NCBI GenBank assembly: GCA_902635945.1
Contig: CACPPU010000001.1
Location: 364,955-428,954 of the forward strand
Length of the DNA: 64,000 bases
Reading direction: 5' to 3'
Source of the DNA: an uncultured Candidatus Actinomarina sp.
GTDB lineage: Bacteria; Actinomycetota; Acidimicrobiia; Actinomarinales; Actinomarinaceae
Shown: one piece after another, positions 8,985-34,357 of the stretch
Position numbering within the stretch: position 1 is the stretch's first letter
Layout of the letters: every line of letters starts with the position of its first letter
The notes under the pieces: model-generated
Database searches by the model: none
What the model saw: only the letters and a program-made list of their open reading frames with translations
Told to the model about the DNA's origin: nothing
Made by a program: the position numbers and the translations under genes

Positions 8985-9353
8985 CTAATTATCTTGATCT
9001 TCCTTTTCAAGTTGTTCTTGTTCGAACCTGTTAAGTGCTAGTAAAAACATTACAAAAAGAATTCCGGAACCAACTAAGAAAGTTAATGGAATAATTCTTA
9101 TCTCGAATGCATTCAAACCATCAATATTTGCAGGAGCTGGACCTCGTGGAGCATAAAGTATAAAGAAAATTGAATTAATAACTCCCCAGCCAAATATTGC
9201 AGCACCAGTGATTAAAAAACCTAGTCTCTTTCCAACATTTGTAGCATTAAGTAAAAATGTAGACCCAGCAAATGTGATTATCGAACCAATAAACATAAGT
9301 ATTCCAGTAACTAATAAGTTAGAGGACAAAAGTGATCTCATTATTTCACGCAT
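8985..9353 (-). CDS. Small 4-TM membrane protein, last gene of the Rieske/cytochrome b operon
   Basis: 122 aa and hydrophobic. Its start overlaps the stop of the dihaem cytochrome c gene by 8 nt, which suggests translational coupling. Confidence 0.4.
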   Translation of the reverse strand: MREIMRSLLSSNLLVTGILMFIGSIITFAGSTFLLNATNVGKRLGFLITGAAIFGWGVINSIFFILYAPRGPAPANIDGLNAFEIRIIPLTFLVGSGILFVMFLLALNRFEQEQLEKEDQDN

Positions 9354-10770
9354 CAGGTGTCATTCCTCTCAAGTAATCAATAATAAGTTCTATGTCTGAT
9401 TGCGGAAGAACAGCACCAAAACCAGGCATTTTTCCTCCACCAACACCGTTAACTCCATATGCTTTACCATTTACAGAACCTTTAACAATAAAATCTATCA
9501 AGTCTTCCCTCTGCTTAAACTGGATATTGGCTCTACCTGCTCTTAGTGCAGGTCCCAAACCACCAGATGCTATCTCTTTAGTATATGCTACACCAGCAGA
9601 ATAACCTGCGGTATGACATCTTGCACAGTAAGCGTTAAATAATCCAACTGCTCTTTTAGCTTTTTCTAGATCTCCATCAAAAGTTGAATCAGCAATTTCA
9701 TCGAATGAAACTTCCCAAAGTTTTTCTTCCAATGCTTTTTCAAGAAATGCTAAACCAGTTTCAGCCTCTTTGATAAATTTATCGTATCCCTCTGCAACAA
9801 TTGTTATGTTAATTAATTCGGATTCAAGTTGTGATAAGTAACCGCTTGCAACAGATTTGTCTTTTCTTCCAGGAATAGATTCTTCGTTATCTGGGTCTAA
9901 ATTTAATATAGAAGTTCCCAAAACTTCAGAAACGGTACTGCTGTAAGCTGATAACTCTGTTTCAGTAGAGTCACTTAATCCGTCTTCATCTGTGTCAATT
10001 CCACCTTCTTTGGAAAGTAGTGATGAAACATCTTCAACTGCTTTTTGAACAACAGGTAATTTTCCTGGTGCATCTTTTACGCTTTGGATTAATTCTTTTT
10101 GCCTTGCTATTTCATTCTCAACTAATAGCTCAGATGTATCGAGTCTCGATAATGAGCTATTGATATTCATTTCAATAGTCTGTAGCTCTTCTGATTGTGA
10201 TATTTGAAAGTGATGCATGTACTCGATCAAGTCATCTAATTGTCCATCATTCATTGGACCACCACCTTCTAATCCCCATGCAGGCATAGGTGAGTTTGCA
10301 CGTCCATAAATTAACCAATAACGAACTTCTTCATCATCATATCTATAGAAAACATTGTTTATTGCAGGAGCAGTCCATGTAACATTTATTCCACTTCTCT
10401 TTTCAACATATGAAGCTGCACCACCAGATCCGTCAACACCATGGCAGTTACCACATCCGAATTCTTCATATAAATGTTCTCCTCTTTCTACAGATACCTC
10501 ATCAAATTCTTCTACAAAACCTTCTTGTCTGTCTTGTTCTCCAAGGTAATAAAGAGGAATCATGATAGTTAAAAGTGAGGCAATTAAAACTGCGACAGTT
10601 AGAGTTCTATCAAGTGTTTTTGTTTCTAAATCATCATCATTTCGATATTTTGACAAGTTTGGTGCATAATCAGAAACTTTACCTGAGCCTCTAAAACCTG
10701 CAGCAGTAAAAAATGCTAGAGCAGCAATTATCCCTAAAGCAATTAATGTAATTGAAAGTGAACTTGTCAT
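9346..10770 (-). CDS. Membrane-anchored dihaem c-type cytochrome (QcrC-like) with a long insert between the haem domains
   Basis: 474 aa with an N-terminal TM and two CxxCH sites (CGNCH, CARCH). Each site has a downstream Met-Pro ligand context (SPMPAWG, GKMPGFG). About 180 acidic/helical residues separate the two domains. Confidence 0.8.
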   Translation of the reverse strand: MTSSLSITLIALGIIAALAFFTAAGFRGSGKVSDYAPNLSKYRNDDDLETKTLDRTLTVAVLIASLLTIMIPLYYLGEQDRQEGFVEEFDEVSVERGEHLYEEFGCGNCHGVDGSGGAASYVEKRSGINVTWTAPAINNVFYRYDDEEVRYWLIYGRANSPMPAWGLEGGGPMNDGQLDDLIEYMHHFQISQSEELQTIEMNINSSLSRLDTSELLVENEIARQKELIQSVKDAPGKLPVVQKAVEDVSSLLSKEGGIDTDEDGLSDSTETELSAYSSTVSEVLGTSILNLDPDNEESIPGRKDKSVASGYLSQLESELINITIVAEGYDKFIKEAETGLAFLEKALEEKLWEVSFDEIADSTFDGDLEKAKRAVGLFNAYCARCHTAGYSAGVAYTKEIASGGLGPALRAGRANIQFKQREDLIDFIVKGSVNGKAYGVNGVGGGKMPGFGAVLPQSDIELIIDYLRGMTPDA

Positions 10771-10771
10771 A

Positions 10772-11650
10772 CTATTCCTCTGTAGTTAGAGCTATACAAG
10801 ATAAACCCTGGGGATACTTCACTGACATACCTGGTGCTCGAGGTGATTCGATAATTGTACCAGTGTCAATAACAAGTCTTCCATTTACATTAGCGACATT
10901 AAACCTATCAAGATTTCTTGGAGCTGGGCCTGCGAAATATTCACCAACCATATTATATTTTGAACCATGGCAAGGACATTCAAATCCTTGTGATGAGTTA
11001 CACCATGGAACCCTACATCCTAAGTGAACACATCTTTGATAAACAGCTACTAAACCATCAGTAATTGTGGAGCCAGTTGCAAACTGAGAGTTGGCCGCCG
11101 CAGCTGCATCCAATGGAAGCACATAAGCTCTTGCTGCTGGAATAAAAGCTGGAATAACGGAACCATCAGCTTGGAATATTTGACTCTTTATTTCTTCAAT
11201 TGGACCTGCATCAACTTTTGAACCAAAACCACCCGAAACTTTTGGCCAGAAAAACCCTAACCATGAAATTGCTTGAATACCTGCAAAAGCACCAAATGAA
11301 ATTCTAAGAGCTTTTGTTAAAAATTGTCTTCTAGTTATTCCTGCTTCTTCTTCAGAGATCTCTTCATAAATAACTTTTTCTTCAAGCTTTACAGCGCCAT
11401 CTGATTCAACAACTGGTTCGTCAATTTCCTCAACAGTTGCTTCCGTTTCGCCTTTTGGCATCTCTGGTTCTAAAAAGTTGGTTTGAGATTTATCCTCTTT
11501 AAGAGCTTTTTTATCAAGGTTTTTCTTCCAGTTAAAACTTTTTGGTCCTCTACCGGTGACAATAACTACGATACCAACAATGCCTAAAAACCCGACCAGA
11601 GCAAAGGCGGCAAAAGATAATTCAACTATGCTCATTCGAAATGAATCCAA
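10772..11650 (-). CDS. Rieske [2Fe-2S] iron-sulfur subunit
   Basis: The Rieske boxes CVHLGC and CPCHGSKY are present, with N-terminal TM helices. The gene lies between the cytochrome b and cytochrome c genes. Confidence 0.85.
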   Translation of the reverse strand: MDSFRMSIVELSFAAFALVGFLGIVGIVVIVTGRGPKSFNWKKNLDKKALKEDKSQTNFLEPEMPKGETEATVEEIDEPVVESDGAVKLEEKVIYEEISEEEAGITRRQFLTKALRISFGAFAGIQAISWLGFFWPKVSGGFGSKVDAGPIEEIKSQIFQADGSVIPAFIPAARAYVLPLDAAAAANSQFATGSTITDGLVAVYQRCVHLGCRVPWCNSSQGFECPCHGSKYNMVGEYFAGPAPRNLDRFNVANVNGRLVIDTGTIIESPRAPGMSVKYPQGLSCIALTTEE

Positions 11651-12462
11651 TCGAGCAAATCGTCAAACCATATCCCATCAATCCAAGGATAAGTCCAGTT
11701 CCAGCCAGGACCTCTAAAAAGAACTCCAATAATAGTAAGTACACCTGCTCCTGCTAAGAAAAAGGTATAGAACATAATTGCAAATTTTCTTTTAGAAGGA
11801 TGTGTTTCTGGATTTCTATCTATGTATGGAAAAGCCATCCATAGAACTACACCTAAAACTAAAGGAATCATAACTCCAGCAATTTGAGGATCCCAATATG
11901 ACAATAATTCCTGCAAGCCCAAAAAATACCAAGGTGCTTTTGCAGGGTTAGGTGTTACGTTTGGATTTGCTTCTTCAAGAAGAGGTGCTTGTAATATTGC
12001 TGATAGAAAAATTAAAAAAGCTGTCATTGCCATCAATGAAACAAATTCTGGAAGCATCAAATGTGGCCAAGTGTTAACTTTATCAACTGGCTCAGAAACT
12101 GATTTTTGAATTGGTTTTGCTTTTACAACAGTTAACAATCGTTGAGTTACCTTTACTTCAGGTGCAAAATCAACTTCTTCAGGACTATCAGGTTCTGGAG
12201 CTTTTGCTGCAGGCTTTTCTTCAGCGTTTACAGCTGGAGCTGGAGTCTCTGCTGCTGGAGCTGGAGTCTCTGCTGCTGGAGCTGGAGTCTCTGCTGCTGG
12301 AGCTGGAGTCTCGTCAATAGTCTTTACCTCTGGCTCTTTTGAGATAACTGTTGGATCTGACTCACCTTTCATTTCAGCTAAAGCTTGTTCAACACTAATG
12401 CCCAAAGCTTTTGCTCTTGCTTCCGCAGATCTCTGCAATAAATGTTCTGGAATATCTACCAT
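11632..12462 (-). CDS. Cytochrome b C-terminal half (subunit-IV-like) with an N-terminal QRSAEARA module and a Pro/Ala/Glu repeat linker
   Basis: 276 aa. The C-terminal TM region carries the Qo-site PEWY-type motif as KAPWYFLGLQELL. The N-terminus reads MVDIPEHLLQRSAEARAKALGISVEQALAEM, followed by (ETPAPAA)x4. Confidence 0.75.
   Translation of the reverse strand: MVDIPEHLLQRSAEARAKALGISVEQALAEMKGESDPTVISKEPEVKTIDETPAPAAETPAPAAETPAPAAETPAPAVNAEEKPAAKAPEPDSPEEVDFAPEVKVTQRLLTVVKAKPIQKSVSEPVDKVNTWPHLMLPEFVSLMAMTAFLIFLSAILQAPLLEEANPNVTPNPAKAPWYFLGLQELLSYWDPQIAGVMIPLVLGVVLWMAFPYIDRNPETHPSKRKFAIMFYTFFLAGAGVLTIIGVLFRGPGWNWTYPWIDGIWFDDLLDWIHFE
12233..12313 (-). repeat. Perfect 21-bp tandem repeat (about 3.9 copies) encoding (ETPAPAA)n in the subunit-IV-like gene
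   Basis: GCTGGAGCTGGAGTCTCTGCT occurs at 12233, 12254 and 12275, with a partial copy from 12296. Confidence 0.9.
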
Positions 12463-12468
12463 AAGCCT

Positions 12469-13242
12469 CTACAAAGGTCCTGAAATTCCGCCATCTTTTC
12501 TTACTCTCCAGAAGTGGACAGCCATAAAGATAACAATAATAAATGGTAAGAAAAGTACATGAAGAACATAAAATCTTAATAATGTAGCTGTTGTTGCCTC
12601 GAGTCCGGCGAACAATCCAAATTTGGCCTGAGCTCCAATAACAGGCGTATAGCCAGCCATGTTACCTCCAACAGTGACAGCCCATATGGCTAGCTGGTCC
12701 CAAGGAAGAAGGTAGCCTGTAAAAGACAACAATAAGGTTAGTAATAGCAAAATTACTCCTATGACCCAGTTGAACTCTCTCGGTGCTTTATATGCTCCGT
12801 GATAAAAGACTCTAGACATATGAAGGAATACAACTAGAACCATAAGGTGTGCACCCCACCTATGCATATTTCTAACTAACGAACCAAATGCGATACTTGT
12901 TTGTAAGGTCTGAATGTCAACGTACGCAAGTTCGGTTGGGCGGAAATAAAACATAAGCCAAATTCCGGTAATTGTTAATACTATGAAAAGAAAGAAACTT
13001 AACCCACCCAAGCAAAGAGTGTATGAGAGCCTAACTCCGTGTCTTTTAACTTTGACTGGATGGAGGTGGTACAACACGTTATTCATAACAACATAAGATC
13101 TGTTTCTAGGACTGTCTACATAGCCTTTCCTAAAAGGAGATCCCGGACGGAAAATACTGGACATTAATTTTCCACCTCTGAAGCTATCGCTAGCACTTAC
13201 TCTTGCTTCTTTAATCCTGTCTCGAAGAGATAATTTTTGCAT
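12469..13242 (-). CDS. Cytochrome b N-terminal half (b6-type, four-helix dihaem core)
   Basis: 257 aa. Haem ligand spacing is H-x13-H in NMHRWGAHLMVLVVFLHM and H-x14-H in LHVLFLPFIIVIFMAVHF. The latter spacing is the b6/Firmicutes-type pattern. Confidence 0.85.
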   Translation of the reverse strand: MQKLSLRDRIKEARVSASDSFRGGKLMSSIFRPGSPFRKGYVDSPRNRSYVVMNNVLYHLHPVKVKRHGVRLSYTLCLGGLSFFLFIVLTITGIWLMFYFRPTELAYVDIQTLQTSIAFGSLVRNMHRWGAHLMVLVVFLHMSRVFYHGAYKAPREFNWVIGVILLLLTLLLSFTGYLLPWDQLAIWAVTVGGNMAGYTPVIGAQAKFGLFAGLEATTATLLRFYVLHVLFLPFIIVIFMAVHFWRVRKDGGISGPL

Positions 13243-13251
13243 TATATAATT

Positions 13252-13698
13252 CTAAAGCCTTCCATATATATATCCGTGTCTGTCATTCCTCTCACCAGAG
13301 TCTTCATCCCAAGGTGCTGTATAAACTCCATTTTGAACGGCTTGATCTGCTAATGAGCCAGCAAACTTTCCGAGAGAAATCACCCCTGTTGGGCATCTAT
13401 CTACACACAATGCACATCTAGTACAAGCTTCTTCATCAACAACAAAAAAACCTGGTGCCTCAGATTCATCTGGAGCTTCCACATTTATTGAATCGTCAAT
13501 TGCATCAACAGATAAATAATGAATGCATTTCCAAGGACATATATCAACACACCCTTCACACAAAATACATTCTGCTTCATCTATATGTAAAAATTGTTTT
13601 GGACGGACACGAGAAGTGACTTTTTCTGTATCAACCATTGCAAGATTGTACTTCTTTTCAAACTCTGGCATCTCTATTAAGACTTCTGATTTAGGCAT
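13252..13698 (-). CDS. 2x[4Fe-4S] ferredoxin-domain subunit encoded within the Rieske/cytochrome b operon
   Basis: 148 aa with two CxxCxxCxxxCP motifs (CILCEGCVDICP, CTRCALCVDRCP). It overlaps the upstream gene by 8 nt. Confidence 0.75.
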   Translation of the reverse strand: MPKSEVLIEMPEFEKKYNLAMVDTEKVTSRVRPKQFLHIDEAECILCEGCVDICPWKCIHYLSVDAIDDSINVEAPDESEAPGFFVVDEEACTRCALCVDRCPTGVISLGKFAGSLADQAVQNGVYTAPWDEDSGERNDRHGYIYGRL

Positions 13699-14284
13699 CT
13701 TGCTCCACCCTTACGACCTCTTTACCATAATCAGAAATTCTAGATTTAGAACTTTCAATTTTATTATTTACATCTTGGATTAAATAGGCAACTACTAATC
13801 CTGCGATTAAAAAGTTAGTTGAAATACCTAACTGTATGATGTCTTTTAACGCAGCAAGGCTTAAACCAATTTCATTATTTAAAAATAGTATTGGTGGAAA
13901 TTGTATAAACTCTCTTTGACCTGTCCACTCTAAAGGTCCTTGTGCTAGGTTCAACCACTCTGATGGGACAATTCCTAAAAGGATTGACATTTCGATCCAT
14001 GTTAGAAATGCAAAATAAGTAGCTTTTGCCCAAGTTAATTCTTTTTGATTCCAGACCACTAATACCATGCCAAGTAAAAGGAGCTGGCTTGCACCAAATG
14101 CTAAAAGCTGACCAATGGATTGAGGCAACCACCCTCGTGGAATCCAATTAAAATAATTTACTACTGCACCTTCAGAAAGACCAGCAAAATGAGCAATGAT
14201 AACTCCAATGGTCATGCCACCGAGCCCTGAAACAATTGAAACTAAACCTATTCTGTATCTAAATTTATAAATTGTATAAATCAA
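13691..14284 (-). CDS. Polytopic membrane protein, first gene of the Rieske/cytochrome b operon
   Basis: 197 aa with about 5 TM segments. A good RBS (GAGGAAA on the minus strand) lies just upstream of the ATG at 14284. No family recognised. Confidence 0.4.
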   Translation of the reverse strand: MIYTIYKFRYRIGLVSIVSGLGGMTIGVIIAHFAGLSEGAVVNYFNWIPRGWLPQSIGQLLAFGASQLLLLGMVLVVWNQKELTWAKATYFAFLTWIEMSILLGIVPSEWLNLAQGPLEWTGQREFIQFPPILFLNNEIGLSLAALKDIIQLGISTNFLIAGLVVAYLIQDVNNKIESSKSRISDYGKEVVRVEQDA

Positions 14285-14419
14285 ATTTCCTCAAACCTTA
14301 CCTTTATATAATATCGTAAGTTTGGATAAAAATATAAATTGAATCATTATCTTTTTTTAAAAATTTTCGTTAACACCAAGCAACATTTTTCCAATATAAT
14401 AGTAAAGTCATATTGAATA

Positions 14420-15823
14420 TTGGCTAAATTGATGAAAATAAAGTTGTTTCCAAAAAACGAACAAGAACTTTCAAAACTCTTTGTTTTGATTTTTCCACTT
14501 ACCTTATTGCTATCACTAACTATTTCATTTCTAAAAAATGCATACTTTACTTTTGCAAACCTTCTGCCAAACAATTCGGTTTTTAATTACGGTTTCTTAG
14601 ACAGGCTCGACACACAGGCAGCTTTAGGTCTAGTTTTCGGTGCGTCACTTTGTTTGAGCTTTTCATATTTATTTTCAAAATCACTAGGTAGATCAATGGT
14701 ACTATTCCCGATTGTATTTTTAACGTTACTGGGTGTTGTTGGAACTGAATTTTTAGACATACTTGTAAATTTCTTCTTTCAGAACTCAGCATATGATTTG
14801 GGTAATAGTTCCCTTCTCATTCTTTTAAAAATTCTGGTTGTGTTTGGATTATTTGGACTTGCCACACTAAACCTACTTGCTAAAAAAGAAGCTTCAATTT
14901 TTGCAAGTGCACAATTTATATATGGTGCGGTGGTCTTTTACTTAATATCTTTATTTATTGTTAGAGCAGAATTAAATGTGTTTTCAGACATATTTTTAGT
15001 TAACTCTTTATATACAGGTACACATATATATGTTGGTGTTGCTTTCATATATATGGCAATAGTTCATTTTTTAATGACTAGACCACTCCAAGCAGTATTA
15101 TTCAACAAAACCCTTTCATCTATTACGTTTTGGGGTTTTTTGTTCCTATTGCCTTGGACAAATTTTAAATATTATTACGGCTCGGTACTTCCAAATTGGA
15201 TTGAAAATATATCTATCTATCTCTCAATGAGCCTTGTTATTCCTTTGTTAGCTTTCCTAGTTAATTACATCAAAACAATACAATCTAAGGAAGTTGATGG
15301 AGTAGGATCACTAAATCTGCTTAACTTTTCAGTAATCCTTTTTTCTATAACAACAATTTTTCATATGATTTCAAGTTTTGAAAACCTTCTTCCAATTTTA
15401 GGGATTACAAATTTTGTAAATGTTATTACCTATGGGCTCTTTGGATCTCTTGTACTAGCAACAATATCCTTAAGTTATTATTTAATACCTAAGTTGTATG
15501 GAAGAGAAGTTAATTACTCTAGACTCGAAGACATTACCTTTTTTGGTTTCAAAATATCTTATCTTTTATTGTTGATTAACAATACTGTATTGGGCGTTAA
15601 CTCAGGTTATTCATGGAATGCGGGAGCAAATGCAGGAAGCCCAACAATTTACGGAGAAGGGTATGGTGTTGTTTGGAGTCTTATTAGTTTTAATTTTTCT
15701 GTTAATACTTTCATCTCTCTACTTTTACTTGGTAGTGGTTTTCTATATTTAATTTCTGTTTTACGAGCAATCTCATCTGGTTCAATAACAACTGTTGAAG
15801 AAATGGTTTATAGCAATGATTGA
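14420..15823 (+). CDS. CcoN-like (cbb3-type haem-copper oxidase subunit I homologue) lacking most metal-ligand histidines
   Basis: 467 aa with about 12 TM segments. Blocks such as SLSYYLIPKLYGRE, GSVLPNWIENISIYLSMSLVIP and YTGTHIYVGV resemble conserved CcoN segments (comparison from memory). The whole protein has only three His. The likely true start is the ATG at 14432. Confidence 0.55.
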   Translation: MAKLMKIKLFPKNEQELSKLFVLIFPLTLLLSLTISFLKNAYFTFANLLPNNSVFNYGFLDRLDTQAALGLVFGASLCLSFSYLFSKSLGRSMVLFPIVFLTLLGVVGTEFLDILVNFFFQNSAYDLGNSSLLILLKILVVFGLFGLATLNLLAKKEASIFASAQFIYGAVVFYLISLFIVRAELNVFSDIFLVNSLYTGTHIYVGVAFIYMAIVHFLMTRPLQAVLFNKTLSSITFWGFLFLLPWTNFKYYYGSVLPNWIENISIYLSMSLVIPLLAFLVNYIKTIQSKEVDGVGSLNLLNFSVILFSITTIFHMISSFENLLPILGITNFVNVITYGLFGSLVLATISLSYYLIPKLYGREVNYSRLEDITFFGFKISYLLLLINNTVLGVNSGYSWNAGANAGSPTIYGEGYGVVWSLISFNFSVNTFISLLLLGSGFLYLISVLRAISSGSITTVEEMVYSND

Positions 15824-15897
15824 AGTGTTAGCAGAAATTTTTGAATTCATAGCTGGAAGCTGGTACACGAAGCGAAAAAAGAAACCCGTGGAAACTA

Positions 15898-16713
15898 GTG
15901 AGGAGAACTCAAGTGAGTGATTTAGTAAATAAAGTAGCTGAATTATTAAATGCGCCTGTTGATCTTGTTCAGAGATCTGCAGAGGCAAGAGCACAGGCAT
16001 CTGGAAAATCTGTTGAAGAGGTATTAAGTTCATGGGCTGGTGGAGAAAGTGTTGCTGCAAGCTCAGCGCCAGCTCCAAAAGAAGAAGCTGTTGTTGAAGA
16101 GGCTCCAGCTGCAGAGGTTGTAGAAGAGGCTGTCGAGGAAGTAGTTGAAGAAGTTGTTGAAGAAACTAAAACTCAGGAGGTTGTCGAGGAAGTAGTTGAA
16201 GAAGTTGTTGAGGAAATTGTTGAGCTAAAAAATGAAAGTGCTTTAAGTTTTATTTCAGGAGTTCTTTTAGTTGGTTTATTTACATTTCTATTCGCTTTTG
16301 TGATTCCAAAGAACCAAGCTACTGATATAGTTAGTGACTCTCTAAATAACAGCGTTAGTGCATCAAATGAGGTTATTAAGGGAGCTGAAGTATACGCAGA
16401 ATTGAATTGTCAATCTTGCCATACACAGAATGTTAGAACTCTAATTCCAGACACTCAAAATGGTAGAGTTCTAAAAAATAAATTTGCAAATGAAACGTTA
16501 ATTAATAATGTTGGAAATATAAGACTTGGACCAGATCTTTCGACCAGCGCAACACGTGAACCCACAAACAATAGTCAATGGCTAACTCGATACTTATCAG
16601 ACTCAACATCTGTCAATAGGGATATTCCACATCCAAGTTATGACTTTCTCGATGATGACGATTTGGAATATCTCGTAACTTATTTACTATCATTAGGAGA
16701 ATCAAATGAGTGA
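15898..16713 (+). CDS. CcoO-like monohaem cytochrome c with an N-terminal QRSAEARA module and acidic repeat linker
   Basis: The C-terminal domain KGAEVYAELNCQSCHTQNVR...RLGPDLS...IPHPSYDFL parallels the CcoO blocks (CxxCH, GPDL, MPxY). The probable true start is the GTG at 15913, preceded by AGGAGA, giving MSDLVNKVAELL like the next gene. Confidence 0.65.
   Translation: MRRTQVSDLVNKVAELLNAPVDLVQRSAEARAQASGKSVEEVLSSWAGGESVAASSAPAPKEEAVVEEAPAAEVVEEAVEEVVEEVVEETKTQEVVEEVVEEVVEEIVELKNESALSFISGVLLVGLFTFLFAFVIPKNQATDIVSDSLNNSVSASNEVIKGAEVYAELNCQSCHTQNVRTLIPDTQNGRVLKNKFANETLINNVGNIRLGPDLSTSATREPTNNSQWLTRYLSDSTSVNRDIPHPSYDFLDDDDLEYLVTYLLSLGESNE
16131..16211 (+). repeat. 30-bp exact direct repeat at 51-bp spacing in the CcoO-like linker (VEEVVEEVVEE)
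   Basis: 16131-16160 and 16182-16211 are identical (TGTCGAGGAAGTAGTTGAAGAAGTTGTTGA). Confidence 0.85.
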
Positions 16714-17638
16714 TTTAGTAAATAAAGTAGCAGAGATTTTAAACGCACCAGTTGACTTGGTACAGCGTTCTGCGGAAGCAAGGGCTGCTGCTTCTGGAGT
16801 TTCAGTTGATGACGTCCTAAGTTCATGGGCTGGCGGTGAAAGTGTAGCTGCGTCTGCTCCAAAAGAAGAAGCTCCTGTTGAAGAGGCTCCAAAAGAAGAA
16901 ACTGTTGTCGAAGAAACAATTGAAGAAGAAGCTCCTGTTGAAGAGGCTCCAAAAGAAGAAACTGTTGTTGCAACTGCTGTAACACGACAAGTAACTAAAT
17001 CTATTTCCTTTGCTAATGAAACAATGGGTATAAAAATTAATTCTGAAAACCTTCTTCCTAAGTGGCTCAACTTTAGTTTTATTATCATTCCATTATTTAT
17101 ACTCATAGGTCTTATTAGTTCTTCTAACACACAAGAGTGCGGTGAAAGAGGGATGCTAAATGTTGATAGAAAGTCTCAAGAGGCTGTAAATTGTGATGGC
17201 TCTCCTTATGAAGGTAGAGGTGTTGCTGCAACAAACACAATAAATTATATTGCACTCGGTCAAGAAGTTTATGCAGGTGCTGCTGCATGTGCTGGCTGTC
17301 ACGGAGGTGGCGGTGGCGGTGGAGTTGGTCCAGCATTTACTGGTGGTGCGTTATATACTACTTTCCCAACATGTGCAGATCACACTAAATGGATTCAACT
17401 CGGATCTGCAGGATGGCAAGCTGAAGTAGGTCCAACTTATGGTGCTGAAGATACAGTCTCTATTGGAGGAATGCCAGGATTTCAAGGAAAGCTTACAGAA
17501 GATGAATTATATGCTGTTGTTGTCTTTGAGAGAGTAGTTTTTGGTGGCGGAAACACTGAAGAAGTACTTAGTGACTGTGGTCTTTTAGAAACAGAAGAGG
17601 ATGAAGTCACCACAGAAGCCCTTAGCTCAACTCCTTAA
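16706..17638 (+). CDS. Membrane-anchored monohaem class I c-type cytochrome with an N-terminal QRSAEARA module
   Basis: 310 aa. The N-terminus MSDLVNKVAEILNAPVDLVQRSAEARAAASGVSVDDVLSSWAGGE is followed by an acidic repeat linker and a TM. The C-terminal domain has CAGCHGGGGGGGVGPAF and the Met ligand context GGMPGFQGKLTEDE. Confidence 0.75.
   Translation: MSDLVNKVAEILNAPVDLVQRSAEARAAASGVSVDDVLSSWAGGESVAASAPKEEAPVEEAPKEETVVEETIEEEAPVEEAPKEETVVATAVTRQVTKSISFANETMGIKINSENLLPKWLNFSFIIIPLFILIGLISSSNTQECGERGMLNVDRKSQEAVNCDGSPYEGRGVAATNTINYIALGQEVYAGAAACAGCHGGGGGGGVGPAFTGGALYTTFPTCADHTKWIQLGSAGWQAEVGPTYGAEDTVSIGGMPGFQGKLTEDELYAVVVFERVVFGGGNTEEVLSDCGLLETEEDEVTTEALSSTP
16865..16968 (+). repeat. 44-bp exact direct repeat at 60-bp period in the cytochrome c linker (EEAPVEEAPKEETVV)
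   Basis: 16865-16908 and 16925-16968 are identical (GAAGAAGCTCCTGTTGAAGAGGCTCCAAAAGAAGAAACTGTTGT). Confidence 0.85.
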
Positions 17639-18045
17639 TGAAAAAATTCTCACTTCTTTATATATTTGTTTTTTTTGATGGATTATCTGTTGCCTCCAGT
17701 TCTTTATTTGGATTTTTCTTTCCAAAACTATTTTCTGATATTTTTGGAGCTAATTTTGGAAGCAATGATTTAGTTTGGCTGAAATTTGTACTGTTGCCTG
17801 GAGTAGCAATAAATGTTCTCCTAATGTTTTTTGCATTAACTAAAAATAGGCCAGGTATTTTACTATCAAATATATTGAGAGTTTTTACAACAGTTAGTTA
17901 CTTATTTATGTGGGGAGAGGCAACAATTATTAGATCCTTACTGAACCTTATAATTATCCACCATGTAATTGTTGTGACTACAACTTTTGTTTTATATTTT
18001 AAAAAAGAAGATAACACAACCTCAGGGGAACTCAATTCAATTTAA
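17638..18045 (+). CDS. Small 4-TM membrane protein, last gene of the cbb3-like operon
   Basis: 135 aa and hydrophobic. Its ATG overlaps the stop of the upstream cytochrome c gene (TAATG). Confidence 0.4.
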   Translation: MKKFSLLYIFVFFDGLSVASSSLFGFFFPKLFSDIFGANFGSNDLVWLKFVLLPGVAINVLLMFFALTKNRPGILLSNILRVFTTVSYLFMWGEATIIRSLLNLIIIHHVIVVTTTFVLYFKKEDNTTSGELNSI

Positions 18046-18173
18046 CTGGTTATAAAAAAACAGGTTTGTTTCTTTCTAAAACTTAATTAAAATTTTTTTA
18101 TGCTACCTGTTATTTACTTTCACATAGCTCTTGTTGCTATCAGTGCACTCTTGTTTTACGTAATCCTTTAATA

Positions 18174-18614
18174 ATGGTTAAACAAAAACGAGAGAAAAGA
18201 GTCGTAGGGTGGAAAGAGCATGCGGCTTTACCTGATCTCAATGTTAAAAGTGTTATTGCAAAAATAGATACTGGAGCAACTTTAGCTTCAATTGATGCTG
18301 CTGATATAAAAATTGTTACAAGAGATAAAGTCAAATACGTAAAGTTCAAGGTAATGAAAAGAAATAATACGGTACGTAAAACTTCTGCTCCCTTAGAAGG
18401 ATATAAACGAATAAAAAGTTCTAATGGTGATGTTGAGAGAAGACCGTATATAAAAACGACTCTATTAATGGATGGTATATCTAAAAAAATAGAGCTTACT
18501 TTAACTGACAGAGGCCCAATGGATTACACAATGCTTATTGGAAGAAAAGCATTAGGTAGAAGATGGGTAGTTAATCCATCCATAAGTTTTCTCACAAAAC
18601 CTGAAAGAGATTAA
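18174..18614 (+). CDS. Retropepsin-like aspartic protease of the RimB / putative ATP-dependent zinc protease (DUF785) family
   Basis: 146 aa. The block AKIDTGATLASIDA contains the D-T-G-A retropepsin signature. It lies directly upstream of rimK, as in rimB-rimK pairs. Confidence 0.6.
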   Translation: MVKQKREKRVVGWKEHAALPDLNVKSVIAKIDTGATLASIDAADIKIVTRDKVKYVKFKVMKRNNTVRKTSAPLEGYKRIKSSNGDVERRPYIKTTLLMDGISKKIELTLTDRGPMDYTMLIGRKALGRRWVVNPSISFLTKPERD

Positions 18615-19823: not shown

Positions 19824-20636
19824 CTAATTTGAGACTTTAATAATTACTTTCGAATTATCTTTACAATTTAACAATTTTTGAGCATTCCCATTGCTTAAAA
19901 ATAACGAAGCCATGCCCCAAGAATCAATAACAATTCCTATCCCGCCAATTGTTTCGTTTTTGTAGGTTTCGCACCACTTAGCACTAAGTTCTTGATTATC
20001 AATTTTTATGGGAATGACGTCACCGACTTTATAATCTTTGTCAGTTAATTCTTGTGGAGATATATTGGTTTGACAGTTACCAAACTCATCAATGTACAAC
20101 ACCTCACCTTTAATTTCATCATCTGTAATATCTGTGAGGGGAATCAAATACTGTTTTAAATCTTCAAGATCAAGTTCCGGTCCAAACTCTTCTAGCTTTA
20201 GTTCTCCTGATGCATATCCTGCAGCAAAGGGAGCAAAAATGTCTCTTGCATGAAAAGTGTTTCCTTCGTGCGGAATAATCCAATTTTCATTTTCTAAGGC
20301 ATAAGCTTTTTGTGCACCCCCAACTGTCGCACAAGCCAAATTAAGCAAACCATTATCAGGTCCAATCATTACTCCCCAATCGGTAGTTATTGCAATAGCT
20401 TTTCTGTCAGTACCAACACCTGGATCTACAACTGCAAGGAGAACTCCTTGTGGTATGTATTGAATTGCCCTCATTAACAAAAGGCTTCCATATTTAATAT
20501 CTTGAGGTGGAATTTGATGAGATATATCATTTACTAAAATATCTTTATCTATTCGACTTATTACTCCTTTTACAACACCAACTGAGCCGTCTTGTAAACC
20601 GAAGTCTGAAGCAAATGAAATTATTTTTTTTGCCAT
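19824..20636 (-). CDS. SAM hydroxide adenosyltransferase / SAM-cleaving enzyme family (DUF62, fluorinase-chlorinase-like)
   Basis: 270 aa. The N-terminal IISFASDFGLQDGSVGVVKGVI and VVDPGVGTDRKAIA blocks are hallmarks of this family. Confidence 0.7.
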   Translation of the reverse strand: MAKKIISFASDFGLQDGSVGVVKGVISRIDKDILVNDISHQIPPQDIKYGSLLLMRAIQYIPQGVLLAVVDPGVGTDRKAIAITTDWGVMIGPDNGLLNLACATVGGAQKAYALENENWIIPHEGNTFHARDIFAPFAAGYASGELKLEEFGPELDLEDLKQYLIPLTDITDDEIKGEVLYIDEFGNCQTNISPQELTDKDYKVGDVIPIKIDNQELSAKWCETYKNETIGGIGIVIDSWGMASLFLSNGNAQKLLNCKDNSKVIIKVSN

Positions 20637-28086: not shown

Positions 28087-28160
28087 GGGCGCTTAGCTCA
28101 GTCCGGCAGAGCGCTTCCCTTACAAGGAAGAAGTCACAGGTTCAAATCCTGTAGCGCCCA
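28087..28160 (+). tRNA. tRNA-Val (anticodon UAC)
   Basis: Manual cloverleaf: acceptor GGGCGCT/AGCGCCC plus discriminator A, D arm GCTC/GAGC, anticodon arm CTTCC-CTTACAA-GGAAG, variable AAGTC, T arm ACAGG-TTCAAAT-CCTGT. It is 74 nt and CCA is not encoded. Confidence 0.9.
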
Positions 28161-30015: not shown

Positions 30016-30133
30016 AATTATTTAAAACTGTAGATACTCTCTGATAACTTCTGATATCTTTTTTTGAGAGCTTAAGTTCATTGACGCTATGAATTGATAT
30101 TCTCTGGTACTACCTAGTATTTAATGGTTCTTT

Positions 30134-30187
30134 CCTTACAAGGAAGAAGTCACAGGTTCAAATCCTGTAGCGCCCACAAGGGTTTTT
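30134..30187 (+). repeat. att-like repeat, right copy (orphan tRNA-Val 3' fragment)
   Basis: Identical 54 bp. Upstream of it, similarity to the tRNA decays (one mismatch, three matches, then none), so this is a fragment rather than a second tRNA. Confidence 0.9.
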
Positions 30188-32162: not shown

Positions 32163-33251
32163 ATGATTAAACTTTACGAACCGAAAATTTACAGAGAAGA
32201 CATAGAACTTGTCAATAAAACTTTAGAAGAGGGTTGGGTGTCCGGAAACTCACCTATCGTAAAAGATTTTGAGAATAAATTAAAAGAATTTAATGAGGCA
32301 AAATTTTGCCTTGTCACTTCAAGTGGAACAGCAGCACTTCATCTTGCACTTCTGGCTTGTGATTTACAAAAAGGTGATGAAGTTATAATGCCTTCACTTT
32401 CATATATTGCTACAGCAAATTCTGTTAGTTACTTTGGAGGCAAACCTGTTTTTGTAGATGTAAATATGAATGACTTTCAAATAGACTCATCAAAAATAGA
32501 AGAAAAAATTAGTGATAAAACCAAAGCTATTATGCCTGTTCATTTATATGGAGGAGTACCTAATCTTGAAAATATTGAAAAGATTGCTTCTAAGTATAAA
32601 TTAAAAATAGTTCATGATAGTGCTGAAGCTTTAGGGTCTATTTATAAAAATAAACATTCAGTTAGCTATAAAGATGTTGGTGTACTTAGTTTTTTCCCAA
32701 ATAAAGTAATTACAACTGGAGAGGGAGGTGCGATAATTACAAACAATGAAACTATTTATAAAAAGGCGCTTAAATTTAGGTCTCAAGGCCTTGTCGAAAA
32801 TACTGACTACGTACATGACGTCATTGGGTACAATTACAGAATTTCAGCATTGAGTGCTGCATTAGGATATAACCAAGTAGATAAAGTAAAAAAGCATGTA
32901 AATATAAAAACAAGTATTTACAAATTTTACATAGATGAGTTAAAAAATTATGGCATTGAATTTCAGTCCCACAATGATGATGTTGTGTCTTCCTACTGGT
33001 TAACAGTGGCCCTCTTCCCAGAAAAGGTTATCATTGATGACTTAAAAAAATTTCTAATAAGTAATGATATAGAAACTAGAAGAATTTTTTATCCACTACA
33101 TTTACAAAAACCTTACCTAAGTAGCAAAAGTGAGAACCATAAAAATTCTGAAAACATATATAAATCTGGATTATGCTTGCCAACTTATCCGGATTTGTCT
33201 GAAAAAGATTTAAGTTATATAGTTGAAAAAATTAAAGAGTTTGTAAATTAG
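32163..33251 (+). CDS. DegT/DnrJ/EryC1/StrS-family sugar aminotransferase
   Basis: 362 aa. The PLP-Lys context SFFPNKVITTGEGGAI and the DSAEALGS block are present. Confidence 0.8.
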   Translation: MIKLYEPKIYREDIELVNKTLEEGWVSGNSPIVKDFENKLKEFNEAKFCLVTSSGTAALHLALLACDLQKGDEVIMPSLSYIATANSVSYFGGKPVFVDVNMNDFQIDSSKIEEKISDKTKAIMPVHLYGGVPNLENIEKIASKYKLKIVHDSAEALGSIYKNKHSVSYKDVGVLSFFPNKVITTGEGGAIITNNETIYKKALKFRSQGLVENTDYVHDVIGYNYRISALSAALGYNQVDKVKKHVNIKTSIYKFYIDELKNYGIEFQSHNDDVVSSYWLTVALFPEKVIIDDLKKFLISNDIETRRIFYPLHLQKPYLSSKSENHKNSENIYKSGLCLPTYPDLSEKDLSYIVEKIKEFVN

Positions 33252-34357
33252 GCTAGATTAACTGTTTCTATTAATGTTTTGGAAATATATTTTTGCTTCT
33301 TTTTAGAAACATGCCTACCCATGGGTAAATAAAGACCATTTTCACCTAAATTTTCACTTATTTTAAATTCCCTATTACTTTTGTACTCTACTGGAAGAGC
33401 AGGTTGTAAGTGTAATGGATAAAAAAATGGCCTAGTTTCTATACCTTGTCTTTTTAATTCATTCATAACATAATCTCTTATACCTTGCTTTTTTAACAAA
33501 ACTCCATATACCCAATAGTGGTTAACAACTCCACCATGTTTACTGAGAGGCAGTTGAAGTAAGTTATCAAAACTAGATAAAAGCCTGGTGTAGTAGTTAC
33601 CTTGTTTTATTTTGAATTTGATTGTTTTTTCTAGCTTGCGTAGCTGAGAAATGCCCAAAGAAGCTTGCAGACCGCTTAATCTATAATTCCAATAGAAATT
33701 TTCATGTGAGAATCTTTTTTTATTGTCAAAATCTAAATTTCTTATTCTTTTTGCATTTTCATAAAAATCTTTTATGTCGGTTAGCACCATACCACCTTCA
33801 CCAGTAGTTATGTGTTTATTAGCATAAAAACTAAAAGTAGAAACATCACCATACGATCCACAAAGTTTATTGTTAACTATTTGACCATGTGCTTCAGCAG
33901 CATCTTCAATTAGATACAAATTATTTTCTTTACAAAAAGCGCTTATCTTATCAACTTCTGAGGCCAGTCCATAAGTATGTACAACTAAAACAGCCTTTGT
34001 TTTATTAGTTATGCTTTTTTTCACATCTTCAAGAGTCATGTTCCAGGTATCCGAATTAACGTCACAAAAAACTGGTTTCGCTCCTGAGCGTATCACTGAT
34101 GATAAGCATGAGATAATAGTAAATGAAGGAATGATAACCTCATCATCGTTTTGAAGATTTAGTATATTTAAAGCAACATCTAAAGCTACACTTCCGTTAC
34201 TTACGGCAACTCCATATTTTTTTTGAAAATTTGATGAGTATCTTTTTTCAAATTCACTTACTATTGGACTGGTTCCAGAAATATTATTTCTAATCAAAGC
34301 ATTTAAAACGCTTAGTGTGTCTCCAATAGATATCCTAGGCTTAAAAACGGGTATCAT
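33248..34357 (-). CDS. DegT/DnrJ/EryC1/StrS-family sugar aminotransferase (second copy)
   Basis: 369 aa. The SFYANKHITTGEGGMV and EDAAEAHG blocks are present. It converges on the previous gene with a 4-nt overlap. Confidence 0.8.
   Translation of the reverse strand: MIPVFKPRISIGDTLSVLNALIRNNISGTSPIVSEFEKRYSSNFQKKYGVAVSNGSVALDVALNILNLQNDDEVIIPSFTIISCLSSVIRSGAKPVFCDVNSDTWNMTLEDVKKSITNKTKAVLVVHTYGLASEVDKISAFCKENNLYLIEDAAEAHGQIVNNKLCGSYGDVSTFSFYANKHITTGEGGMVLTDIKDFYENAKRIRNLDFDNKKRFSHENFYWNYRLSGLQASLGISQLRKLEKTIKFKIKQGNYYTRLLSSFDNLLQLPLSKHGGVVNHYWVYGVLLKKQGIRDYVMNELKRQGIETRPFFYPLHLQPALPVEYKSNREFKISENLGENGLYLPMGRHVSKKKQKYISKTLIETVNLA

Follow-up and report, generated by a model that had tools for sequence, protein, structure and literature searches.

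What can a homologue of an oxygen-reducing enzyme do once the residues that hold its haems and copper are gone? The question is raised by a gene in a 64,000-nucleotide stretch of DNA (hereafter, the window) from an uncultured Candidatus Actinomarina sp. (assembly GCA_902635945.1, contig CACPPU010000001.1, positions 364,955 to 428,954). The gene, at positions 14432 to 15823 of the window on the plus strand, encodes a 463-amino-acid (aa) protein with 12 transmembrane (TM) helices, which we call pCcoN. A preliminary description of the window, made from the letters alone, had singled it out as a homologue of CcoN, the catalytic subunit (subunit I) of cbb3 oxidases, that cannot bind the canonical haem/CuB centre. 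Based on Pfam, phmmer, and AlphaFold2/Foldseek comparisons, ligand alignments, and substitution rates, we conclude that pCcoN is very probably a ligand-less CcoN homologue maintained by selection. The evidence also suggests that the family to which it belongs is a pseudoenzyme branch, apparently a new one, of the C-family.

The open reading frame extends over 467 codons (14420 to 15823, plus strand), with TTG as its mechanical first codon. The 120 closest database homologues are 461 to 463 aa long and have the N-terminus MKIKLF, which makes the ATG at 14432 the likely start. The Pfam COX1 profile (PF00115) matches residues 21 to 403 with 41.5 bits (E=1e-10), which exceeds its gathering score of 34.8. 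In a phmmer search against all PDB sequences, the significant matches were cbb3 CcoN chains only (E values of 2.3e-9 to 7.4e-5), with 9g6b_A (2.3e-9) and 3mk7_A (1.7e-8) at the top. The score against the NCBIfam CcoN equivalog TIGR00780 is 35.1 bits, below the cut-off of 583.15. An AlphaFold2 model built on a 14-sequence family alignment (predicted local distance difference test score [pLDDT], 81; predicted template modelling score [pTM], 0.87) has 12 TM helices. When this model was compared with PDB by Foldseek, seven CcoN chains ranked first, with TM-scores of 0.81 to 0.86 over the full length at 15% identity, and both the subunit I chains of aa3 oxidases (0.73 to 0.77) and NorB (0.77 to 0.78) scored below them. 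Structures of bc1-cbb3 supercomplexes (8smr, 6xkw, and 9g83) are among the best matches. By profile and fold, pCcoN is a subunit I member of the haem-copper oxidoreductase (HCO) superfamily, and it is a real yet very distant homologue of CcoN. Profile search and structural superposition, both proposed in the preliminary description as checks, thus agree with its assignment.

Exactly three histidines occur in pCcoN (GTHIYVG, AIVHFLM, and TIFHMIS); the open reading frame and the alignments confirm the earlier count of three in 467 residues and the three contexts. This is short of the six His ligands of haem-copper oxidase subunit I. Residues 59 to 419 of Pseudomonas stutzeri CcoN were rebuilt from HMMER output and aligned by MAFFT with pCcoN and 57 full-length relatives. 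The columns of H60, H207, Y251, H257, H258, H345, and H347 were placed by the numbering of structure 3MK7, and there pCcoN has D, G, L, K, Y, I, and Y, respectively. The HMMER pairwise alignment gives D for H60, F-K for H257/H258, and V/T for H345/H347. The two methods are offset by one or two residues at two ligand sites of pCcoN, and neither places a His there. Three of the substitutions first described are therefore borne out, namely haem b His to Asp, the cross-link Tyr (Y251, helix VII in P. stutzeri) to Leu, and the loss of both H345 and H347. Nearly all ligand-less relatives have a residue other than Tyr in the Y251 column. A fourth claim, that the HH pair became FK, holds as to the loss; the reading FK comes from HMMER, and MAFFT gives K-Y.

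The suggestion that one CuB His is retained did not survive this comparison. The His of GTHIYVG falls on H207 in the HMMER alignment only by way of a 10-residue gap, and in the MAFFT alignment it lies two columns off. An orthologue of 32% identity (P0123) has Gln at this position, every remoter relative lacks this His, and none of the three His residues of pCcoN is conserved even among Actinomarinales. As judged from these alignments, no haem or CuB ligand is conserved in pCcoN. Membership in the known nitric oxide reductase (NOR) families was rejected because the haem ligands are absent: NorB combines haem His ligands with an FeB site of three His and a Glu, and the same His columns are missing from pCcoN. 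NorB structures also match pCcoN less well than CcoN does.

Genomes (one per species) were scanned with a three-sequence Actinomarinales alignment, whose reach is limited to that order; the 14-sequence family alignment has no stretch conserved enough to serve as a genome-scan query. The pCcoN cluster was found at 26 loci, labelled as Candidatus Actinomarina (22 loci), an OCS155-cluster genome, an unclassified Actinomycetota metagenome-assembled genome (MAG), and two others. Loci L001 (JBJKYB010000001.1, labelled as a Gammaproteobacteria MAG) and L022 (CAJWHM010000051.1, a Bacteroidetes MAG) carry the Actinomarina cluster and are probably mis-binned or mislabelled. The DNA identity of the window to the nearest loci, L001 included, is 94 to 96%, so the window represents a further strain of the same group. 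On the DNA recovered, which is complete for most loci and a short or truncated contig for several, homologous gene order is identical in all 26. One strand encodes SPFH, NfeD, a small TM protein, a dihaem cytochrome c, a Rieske protein, subunit IV, cytochrome b6, a 2x[4Fe-4S] ferredoxin, and a 197-aa TM protein; the opposite strand encodes pCcoN, a CcoO-like protein, and a monohaem cytochrome c, followed by a Zn protease and RimK.

The pCcoN gene is intact in every locus that holds it whole (four loci stop within it), and 285 near-identical proteins, of 461 to 463 aa, were found from independent metagenomes. Against six orthologues, the Nei-Gojobori ratio of nonsynonymous to synonymous substitution rates (dN/dS) of pCcoN is 0.05 to 0.08; the values are 0.05 to 0.08 for the adjacent cytochrome c gene and 0.09 to 0.19 for the CcoO-like gene. 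With its ligand loss, these ratios, and a conserved gene order, pCcoN is a pseudoenzyme in the sense of an enzyme homologue that has no catalytic residues and is under purifying selection. The earlier view that the gene is retained and not decaying agrees with these ratios, with the order common to the 26 loci, and with persistence of the cluster down to about 20% identity. Its reading as a repurposed pseudo-oxidase is supported by the profile, the fold, the ligand loss, dN/dS, and gene order taken together.

Conservation over a longer distance has a different pattern. Between the window and the locus L027, which has a high content of guanine plus cytosine (GC), protein identity is highest for cytochrome b6 (77%), the small TM protein (64%), the ferredoxin (62%), and subunit IV (56%), is intermediate for the Rieske protein (49%), the dihaem cytochrome c (43%), the second cytochrome c (39%), and the 197-aa TM protein (38%), and is lowest for the CcoO-like protein (29%) and pCcoN (22%). 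In this comparison, pCcoN is the least conserved and fastest-evolving gene of the module, even though purifying selection on it is clear among close orthologues. In working oxidases, no subunit is normally as well conserved as subunit I. The low identity of pCcoN fits constraint on the fold and contact surfaces only.

pCcoN is not peculiar to this genome; it is a member of a large ligand-less CcoN-like family. When 1.84 billion cluster representatives were searched exhaustively with HMMER, 121 matched. The full-length relatives at 53% and 32% identity are from other Actinomarinales, and dozens of remoter relatives (19 to 28% identity, 450 to 500 aa, 1 to 7 His) are mostly from high-GC sequences. 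In about 35 full-length representatives, one of them named as Acidimicrobiia, few or none of the ligand columns keep their residue; canonical CcoN proteins in the same match list read HHHHHH. A few relatives have partial ligand sets: P0169 reads HHQYHH (haem ligands kept, CuB His pair lost), P0177 reads HHH-IQ, and P0235 keeps the His pair only. These three group with proteins associated with alternative complex III (ACIII) and may be intermediate stages of degeneration or may represent different chemistries.

The family alignments contain no substitute for the lost residues. There are zero conserved His residues in the 14-sequence alignment, and the columns conserved at 80% or more in a 28-sequence alignment are G, P, W, F, L, T, R, and the initiator Met only. 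Just one ionisable residue, an Arg at the cytoplasmic end of TM2, is conserved among the 28 sequences, and none of the conserved residues could serve as a metal or haem ligand; neither a new set of ligands nor a proton channel is thus indicated. A neighbour-joining tree of 59 sequences, which is rough, places the canonical HHHHHH proteins apart from the ligand-less groups. The long branches of the AT-rich Actinomarina proteins keep this tree from deciding between one loss and several.

Public databases name ligand-less proteins "cbb3-type cytochrome c oxidase subunit I" (e.g., MBK5266846.1, from an Acidimicrobiia MAG). The remark in the preliminary description that cbb3-type genes are not expected in Actinobacteria therefore needs rewording: cbb3 subunit I is listed in databases for an Acidimicrobiia genome, and the one such entry that we traced (MBK5266846.1) is itself a member of the ligand-less family.

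The immediate partner of pCcoN is encoded at 15898 to 16713 (plus strand) and is a CcoO/FixO-like membrane-anchored monohaem cytochrome c (Pfam FixO, 34.2 bits; cut-off, 29.6). Its N-terminal cytoplasmic motif is joined by an acidic, low-complexity linker to a single TM helix, beyond which a periplasmic haem domain contains CQSCH and GPDL. It thus has the TM anchor and the single CXXCH of an adjacent CcoO, although it scores only 23.8 bits against TIGR00781 (cut-off, 200.65) and aligns weakly with 3mk7_B (E=0.022). The axial Met of canonical CcoO (M136 in P. stutzeri) is replaced by His (IPHPSY, window positions 16600 to 16640). All Actinomarinales and L029 have His at this position, L034 has Gln, and L027, L030, L031, L032, L036, and L038 have Met as in canonical CcoO, which implies that haem ligation and potential differ by lineage.

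Wider contexts were read from the contigs of eleven divergent representatives. A gene that matches FixO directly follows pCcoN in 10 of these 11 independent contexts, and the contig of the remaining one (L042) stops too soon to reveal the family of the next gene. An overlap of 4 to 8 nucleotides (nt) joins the two genes in the eight contexts outside Actinomarina in which they are separate, and they are fused in two contexts (L031 and L038) to encode a single protein of 637 to 651 aa. CXXCH and GPDL are kept in every CcoO-like partner examined.

The next gene of the window (16706 to 17638, plus strand) encodes a second membrane-anchored monohaem class-I cytochrome c (CAGCH and GGMPGF; Pfam Cytochrome_CBB3/Cytochrom_C). 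It has the same N-terminal cytoplasmic motif as the CcoO-like protein and, like its orthologues, a single CXXCH. It is thus not a dihaem CcoP, and its score against TIGR00782 is 13.9 bits (cut-off, 179.95). Its PDB matches are weak, with E values of at least 0.011 (a mono/dihaem cytochrome c variant, cL/c551i, and c6), and ActE is fainter (E=0.35). With the divergent bc-type operon described below, these assignments by Pfam, NCBIfam, and coordinates show that the gene arrangement had been described correctly at the outset (a CcoO-like gene, a further cytochrome c gene, and a divergent bc-type operon).

The two cytochromes c share their N-terminal motif of about 35 residues with subunit IV of the divergent operon, where an example reads IPEHLLQRSAEARAKALGISVEQALAEM. 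The consensus is P-E-x-L-[VL]-x-R-S-A-E-A-[RK]-A-x-A-x-G-x-S-V-[ED]-x-V-L, and a six-frame regular-expression scan located it at three places in the 64 kb, in those three proteins only. The motif is taken to be cytoplasmic because the expected topology has the N-terminus inside and the haem domain outside. It occurs at equivalent places in L027 (with two copies in subunit IV) and L029, and the regular-expression scan did not find it in ACIII-type loci. The best 120 matches of a profile search with the motif are all fragments of 46 to 83 aa, and the named ones among them are from Actinomarina, Acidimicrobiia, or a contig labelled Gammaproteobacteria. In the pCcoN operon, the motif is encoded by a 150-nt direct repeat (15909 to 16058 and 16702 to 16851, plus strand; copies 78% identical), and the copy in subunit IV is at about 12360 to 12462 (minus strand). 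In L007 and L014, the two tandem copies encode the same protein sequence, an indication of concerted evolution. Between the motif and the TM anchor, both cytochromes c have acidic linkers rich in Glu, Val, Ala, and Pro (16079 to 16209 and 16833 to 16968), which are built of short imperfect DNA repeats and whose length is apparently strain variable, judging from differences in gene coordinates among loci.

The divergent operon (minus strand) encodes a quinol:cytochrome c oxidoreductase. A cytochrome b6-type subunit (12469 to 13242; PF00033, 147.9 bits) is the most conserved gene product of the module. It scores 289.3 bits against NF040969 (ExtP), just below the cut-off of 290; this model describes the b-type cytochrome of the selenite/tellurite reduction operon. 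The CLGG motif of the subunit resembles the haem ci cysteine of b6-type cytochromes. The other core subunits are a PetD-like subunit IV (11632 to 12462; PF00032), whose N-terminal extension contains the shared motif located by the motif scan, a Rieske [2Fe-2S] protein (10772 to 11650; PF00355 and NCBIfam b6f Rieske models), and a membrane-anchored dihaem cytochrome c of the bc-type complex (9346 to 10770; two Cytochrome_CBB3 domains and a weak QcrC-like match). A 2x[4Fe-4S] ferredoxin-like subunit (13252 to 13698; Pfam Fer4) is kept in all bc-associated loci. The first gene of the operon (13691 to 14284) encodes a 197-aa membrane protein with no Pfam or NCBIfam match, and counterparts of 197 to 305 aa are present in L027, L029, L034, L035, and L038, that is, in every bc-associated locus examined. 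With these last two components, the operon is that of a b6c-type complex that is itself unusual.

This operon lies divergent to pCcoN in five contexts (the window, L027, L029, L034/35, and L038/39). In another lineage (L032, L036/37, and L041), pCcoN is located immediately 3' of the ACIII genes (actB-F) on the same strand, and in L032 an aa3 operon (COX2, COX1, CtaA, CtaB, and COX3) is directly 3' of the pCcoN pair. Oxygen-reductase gene clusters are known to follow ACIII clusters, and both enzymes form supercomplexes (PMC5928083). The ligand-less pCcoN-FixO pair fills the genomic slot of oxygen reductases after ACIII.

We propose that pCcoN descends from the catalytic subunit of a C-family (cbb3-type) haem-copper oxidase and is itself catalytically dead; the 12-helix fold is kept. 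It has no conserved ligand, no cross-link Tyr, and no conserved intramembrane ionisable residue, and reduction of O2 or NO by a known mechanism is thus not expected. pCcoN is predicted to have no O2 reduction or proton pumping activity, and most probably it carries no redox cofactor. It may have kept the non-catalytic job of CcoN, which would be to act as a membrane platform for the CcoO-like monohaem cytochrome c and, in the lineage of the window, also to seat the second membrane-anchored monohaem cytochrome c. This platform role is suggested by the invariable gene pairing, the overlapping start and stop codons, and the natural fusions, and pCcoN would have been retained because that job is still done. 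The cytochrome c docking role put forward in the preliminary description is thus better founded than before, although it is still an inference. The pseudo-cbb3 module would then be a haem-c-only electron relay attached to the adjoining quinol:cytochrome c oxidoreductase (a b6c-type complex in Actinomarina and in the high-GC lineages, of which at least a part is Acidimicrobiia, and ACIII in a further lineage). It would take electrons from that enzyme and hand them to a real terminal oxidase. The N-terminal motif shared in the Actinomarina and high-GC lineages probably tethers the b6c complex and the pCcoN module as a supercomplex. We consider the scaffold and relay mechanism as a whole, in which physical association and electron direction are read from gene context, to be evenly balanced between right and wrong.

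A more specific joint proposal is tentative, and we regard it as somewhat doubtful. The pseudo-cbb3 module could be an obligate structural part of an undescribed supercomplex in which b6c or ACIII is permanently joined to a cofactor-less cbb3 fossil. The fossil would serve as a platform for a cytochrome c wire to the real oxidase, tethered by the motif in the Actinomarina and high-GC lineages, and would be a respiratory pseudoenzyme derived from an ancestral complex III-cbb3 supercomplex.

Several points weigh against the relay and its tether. The bc-type operon already encodes a dihaem cytochrome c of its own, and an extra relay is not obviously needed. An axial His or Gln would normally lower the haem potential and is thus a poor fit to a high-potential relay. 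In an AlphaFold model of a natural fusion (P0158), the pCcoN part is confident, but much of the FixO domain has a pLDDT of <50. Two contexts are without bc or ACIII genes, namely L030, with a multihaem cytochrome, Fe-S/FHA proteins, and complex I as neighbours, and L040, with ResB/CcsA. A tblastn search with COX1, COX2, COX3, CtaA, and CtaB of L032 gave no match in the window or the Actinomarina loci. In two single-cell assemblies, L011 (9368 to 10360) and L013, a single cytochrome c gene follows pCcoN and the CcoO-like gene is seemingly missing; this may reflect deletion by recombination between the N-terminal repeats or assembly collapse, the latter being possible because contigs L010, L012, and L016 break at the repeat.

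Several of the same observations bear on a purely structural or assembly role, in which pCcoN and its partners would stabilise or organise the bc or ACIII complex, or a supercomplex, with their haems off the main electron path. This fits the conserved residues of the family, which are structural only (G, P, W, and similar), the rank of pCcoN as the fastest-evolving protein of the module, and the dihaem cytochrome c that the bc operon has of its own. The variation of the CcoO-like axial ligand among Met, His, and Gln suggests that the exact potential is uncritical. However, CXXCH and GPDL are kept in every partner examined, a second cytochrome c is usually co-encoded, and two haem proteins under purifying selection (dN/dS of 0.06 to 0.19) are hard to explain without a redox role. 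We consider a purely structural role unlikely.

It is very unlikely that pCcoN is still an enzyme with a cofactor on non-histidine or lineage-specific ligands and a new redox chemistry. Confidence in the predicted fold extends to the helices that would normally enclose the haems, and the partial ligand sets of P0169, P0177, and P0235 indicate that intermediate states exist. However, no His, Met, Cys, Tyr, Lys, Asp, or Glu is conserved in any TM segment of the family, the three His residues of pCcoN vary even within its own order, and the divergence of the sequences is extreme.

We assign a similarly low probability to a cofactor-less quinone-interacting subunit of the ActC/NrfD type, with a quinol site near the periplasmic face that feeds the CcoO-like haem. 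An HCO fold can host a quinol site, as qNOR shows (PMC11214002), cofactor-free membrane subunits oxidise quinol in ACIII (PMC5928083), and the two contexts without bc and ACIII genes on the DNA recovered would be accommodated. Against this, the family has no conserved polar residues able to form a quinol pocket, and such a subunit would be redundant beside the complete quinol oxidase module that is usually encoded next to it. A decaying pseudogene, strain-specific accident, or sequencing artefact, to which the fast evolutionary rate alone might point, is rejected as having a negligible chance of being correct, given the full-length frame, the 285 near-identical proteins, the intact gene in whole loci, the dN/dS of 0.05 to 0.08, and a cluster conserved down to about 20% identity.

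The module as we interpret it, a scaffold with its cytochromes c, resembles several known systems in part. Like the cbb3 oxidase CcoN-CcoO-CcoP of P. stutzeri (PDB 3MK7/5DJQ), it has a subunit I with a 12-TM fold, a gene order of N, O, and a further cytochrome c, and a CcoO-like partner with an N-terminal TM anchor, CXXCH, and GPDL. Natural N-O fusions are a further likeness, and NCBIfam includes a putative bifunctional subunit I/II among its models. Unlike in that enzyme, subunit I here is without the six His ligands and the cross-link Tyr, scores far below the TIGR00780 cut-off, and is the least rather than the most conserved protein of its cluster. The third subunit is monohaem and not a dihaem CcoP, and the axial Met of the CcoO-like protein is His in Actinomarinales.

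In the bc1-cbb3 supercomplexes (Rhodobacter capsulatus 6XKW, Pseudomonas aeruginosa 8SMR, and alphaproteobacterial 9G83), a CcoN-type subunit is joined to a Rieske/cytochrome b complex, and membrane-anchored c-type cytochromes are the wire. The genes of both assemblies are likewise present in the window, divergently paired and with a common cytoplasmic motif. In contrast to those supercomplexes, the oxidase half here appears dead, the association is deduced from genes, and the bc half consists of split b6/subunit IV with an extra 2x[4Fe-4S] subunit. The position of pCcoN after the act genes in L032, L036/37, and L041 recalls the ACIII-caa3/aa3 super-operons of Rhodothermus marinus and Flavobacterium johnsoniae; here, however, the gene after ACIII encodes a ligand-less homologue, and in L032 the genuine aa3 operon comes only thereafter.

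The NOR families (cNOR, qNOR, eNOR, bNOR, sNOR, gNOR, and nNOR) keep the haem ligands and a metal site, with at most one active-site His replaced (in gNOR) (PMC11214002, Murali et al. 2024). Like the pCcoN family, they have diverged within this superfamily, are without the active-site tyrosine, and have given up O2 reduction. In contrast to them, the pCcoN family keeps none of the haem ligands or the metal site. The QcrCAB-CtaCDEF complex of Actinomycetia (III2IV2) is an obligate supercomplex that has no soluble cytochrome c and uses membrane-bound c haems as wiring, and its complex III and oxidase-related genes are neighbours, as at the pCcoN locus. Unlike the pCcoN module, it has a long QcrB cytochrome b, a real aa3 partner, and no HCO pseudo-subunit.

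The full-text literature that we searched contains no description of a ligand-less CcoN family, although most subscription journals were outside its coverage and a prior mention is possible. In metagenomic studies, the presence of cbb3 genes is commonly taken as a sign of high-affinity, microaerobic respiration. Bacterial MAGs are routinely reported to encode cbb3 oxidases (e.g., PMC8357290). For Acidobacteria, a cbb3 oxidase has been reported that had hardly any expression and gave no capacity for respiration at nanomolar O2 (PMC8407424). If "cbb3" calls rest on the ligand-less family, the microaerobic inference would be wrong for the abundant ocean Candidatus Actinomarina/OM1, and the same misreading would apply to the high-GC relatives, at least one of which is named as Acidimicrobiia. 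Our interpretation, if correct, would also place a pseudoenzyme within the core respiratory chain, in that the catalytic and most conserved subunit of an oxidase would have been stripped of every cofactor ligand and yet have persisted over a very long period alongside its cytochrome partner. The coupling to two unrelated quinol:cytochrome c oxidoreductases (b6c type and ACIII) suggests unstudied wiring between complex III and oxidases, and because this coupling is recurrent, the idea of an ancestral complex III-cbb3 supercomplex is testable. Actinomarinales have been reported as likely haem auxotrophs (bioRxiv 10.1101/2021.01.11.426183), and a complex that needs two haems fewer may matter to them. 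However, it was not a saving of haem that gave rise to the pCcoN family, as the family is also found in non-streamlined, high-GC relatives.

The remaining features of the two operons are minor. An AT-rich intergenic region between them (14285 to 14431) presumably contains both promoters, judging from its position; a scan of 14100 to 18300 for consensus promoters and terminators gave fewer matches than shuffled sequence. The bc-type operon ends with the gene for a small membrane protein of 122 aa (8985 to 9353, minus strand; 64% identity to the L027 copy), and a counterpart (119 to 154 aa, no Pfam match) is at the same position in L034 and L038. At the end of the pCcoN operon, a small hydrophobic protein of 135 aa is encoded (17638 to 18045, plus strand; no NCBIfam match, best Pfam E=0.022). 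It is present in seven of the nine closest loci (L001 to L004, L006, L007, and L009), with L005 and L008 ending before it. It was not found in the clade of 50 to 53% identity or in L026, and the closest Actinomarina clade is the only one in which it was seen. Just 3' of the operon, the window has a gene of the SAM hydroxide adenosyltransferase family (SAM_HAT_N/C; 19824 to 20636, minus strand), and the same neighbour is found in the high-GC relatives L027 (11477 to 12283) and L034 (11760 to 12650).

Elsewhere in the window, a tRNA gene at 28087 to 28160 marks an immediate drop in GC content (about 0.36 before it and about 0.25 after it), and a second, weak tRNA match is at 30112 to 30168. The low-GC region encodes two DegT/DnrJ sugar aminotransferases (32163 to 33251, plus strand, and 33248 to 34357, minus strand), a protein with a uridine-kinase/PRK-family domain, and several open reading frames of 500 to 650 aa without a Pfam match. 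The stretch from 28000 to 64000 looks like a flexible cell-envelope glycosylation island.

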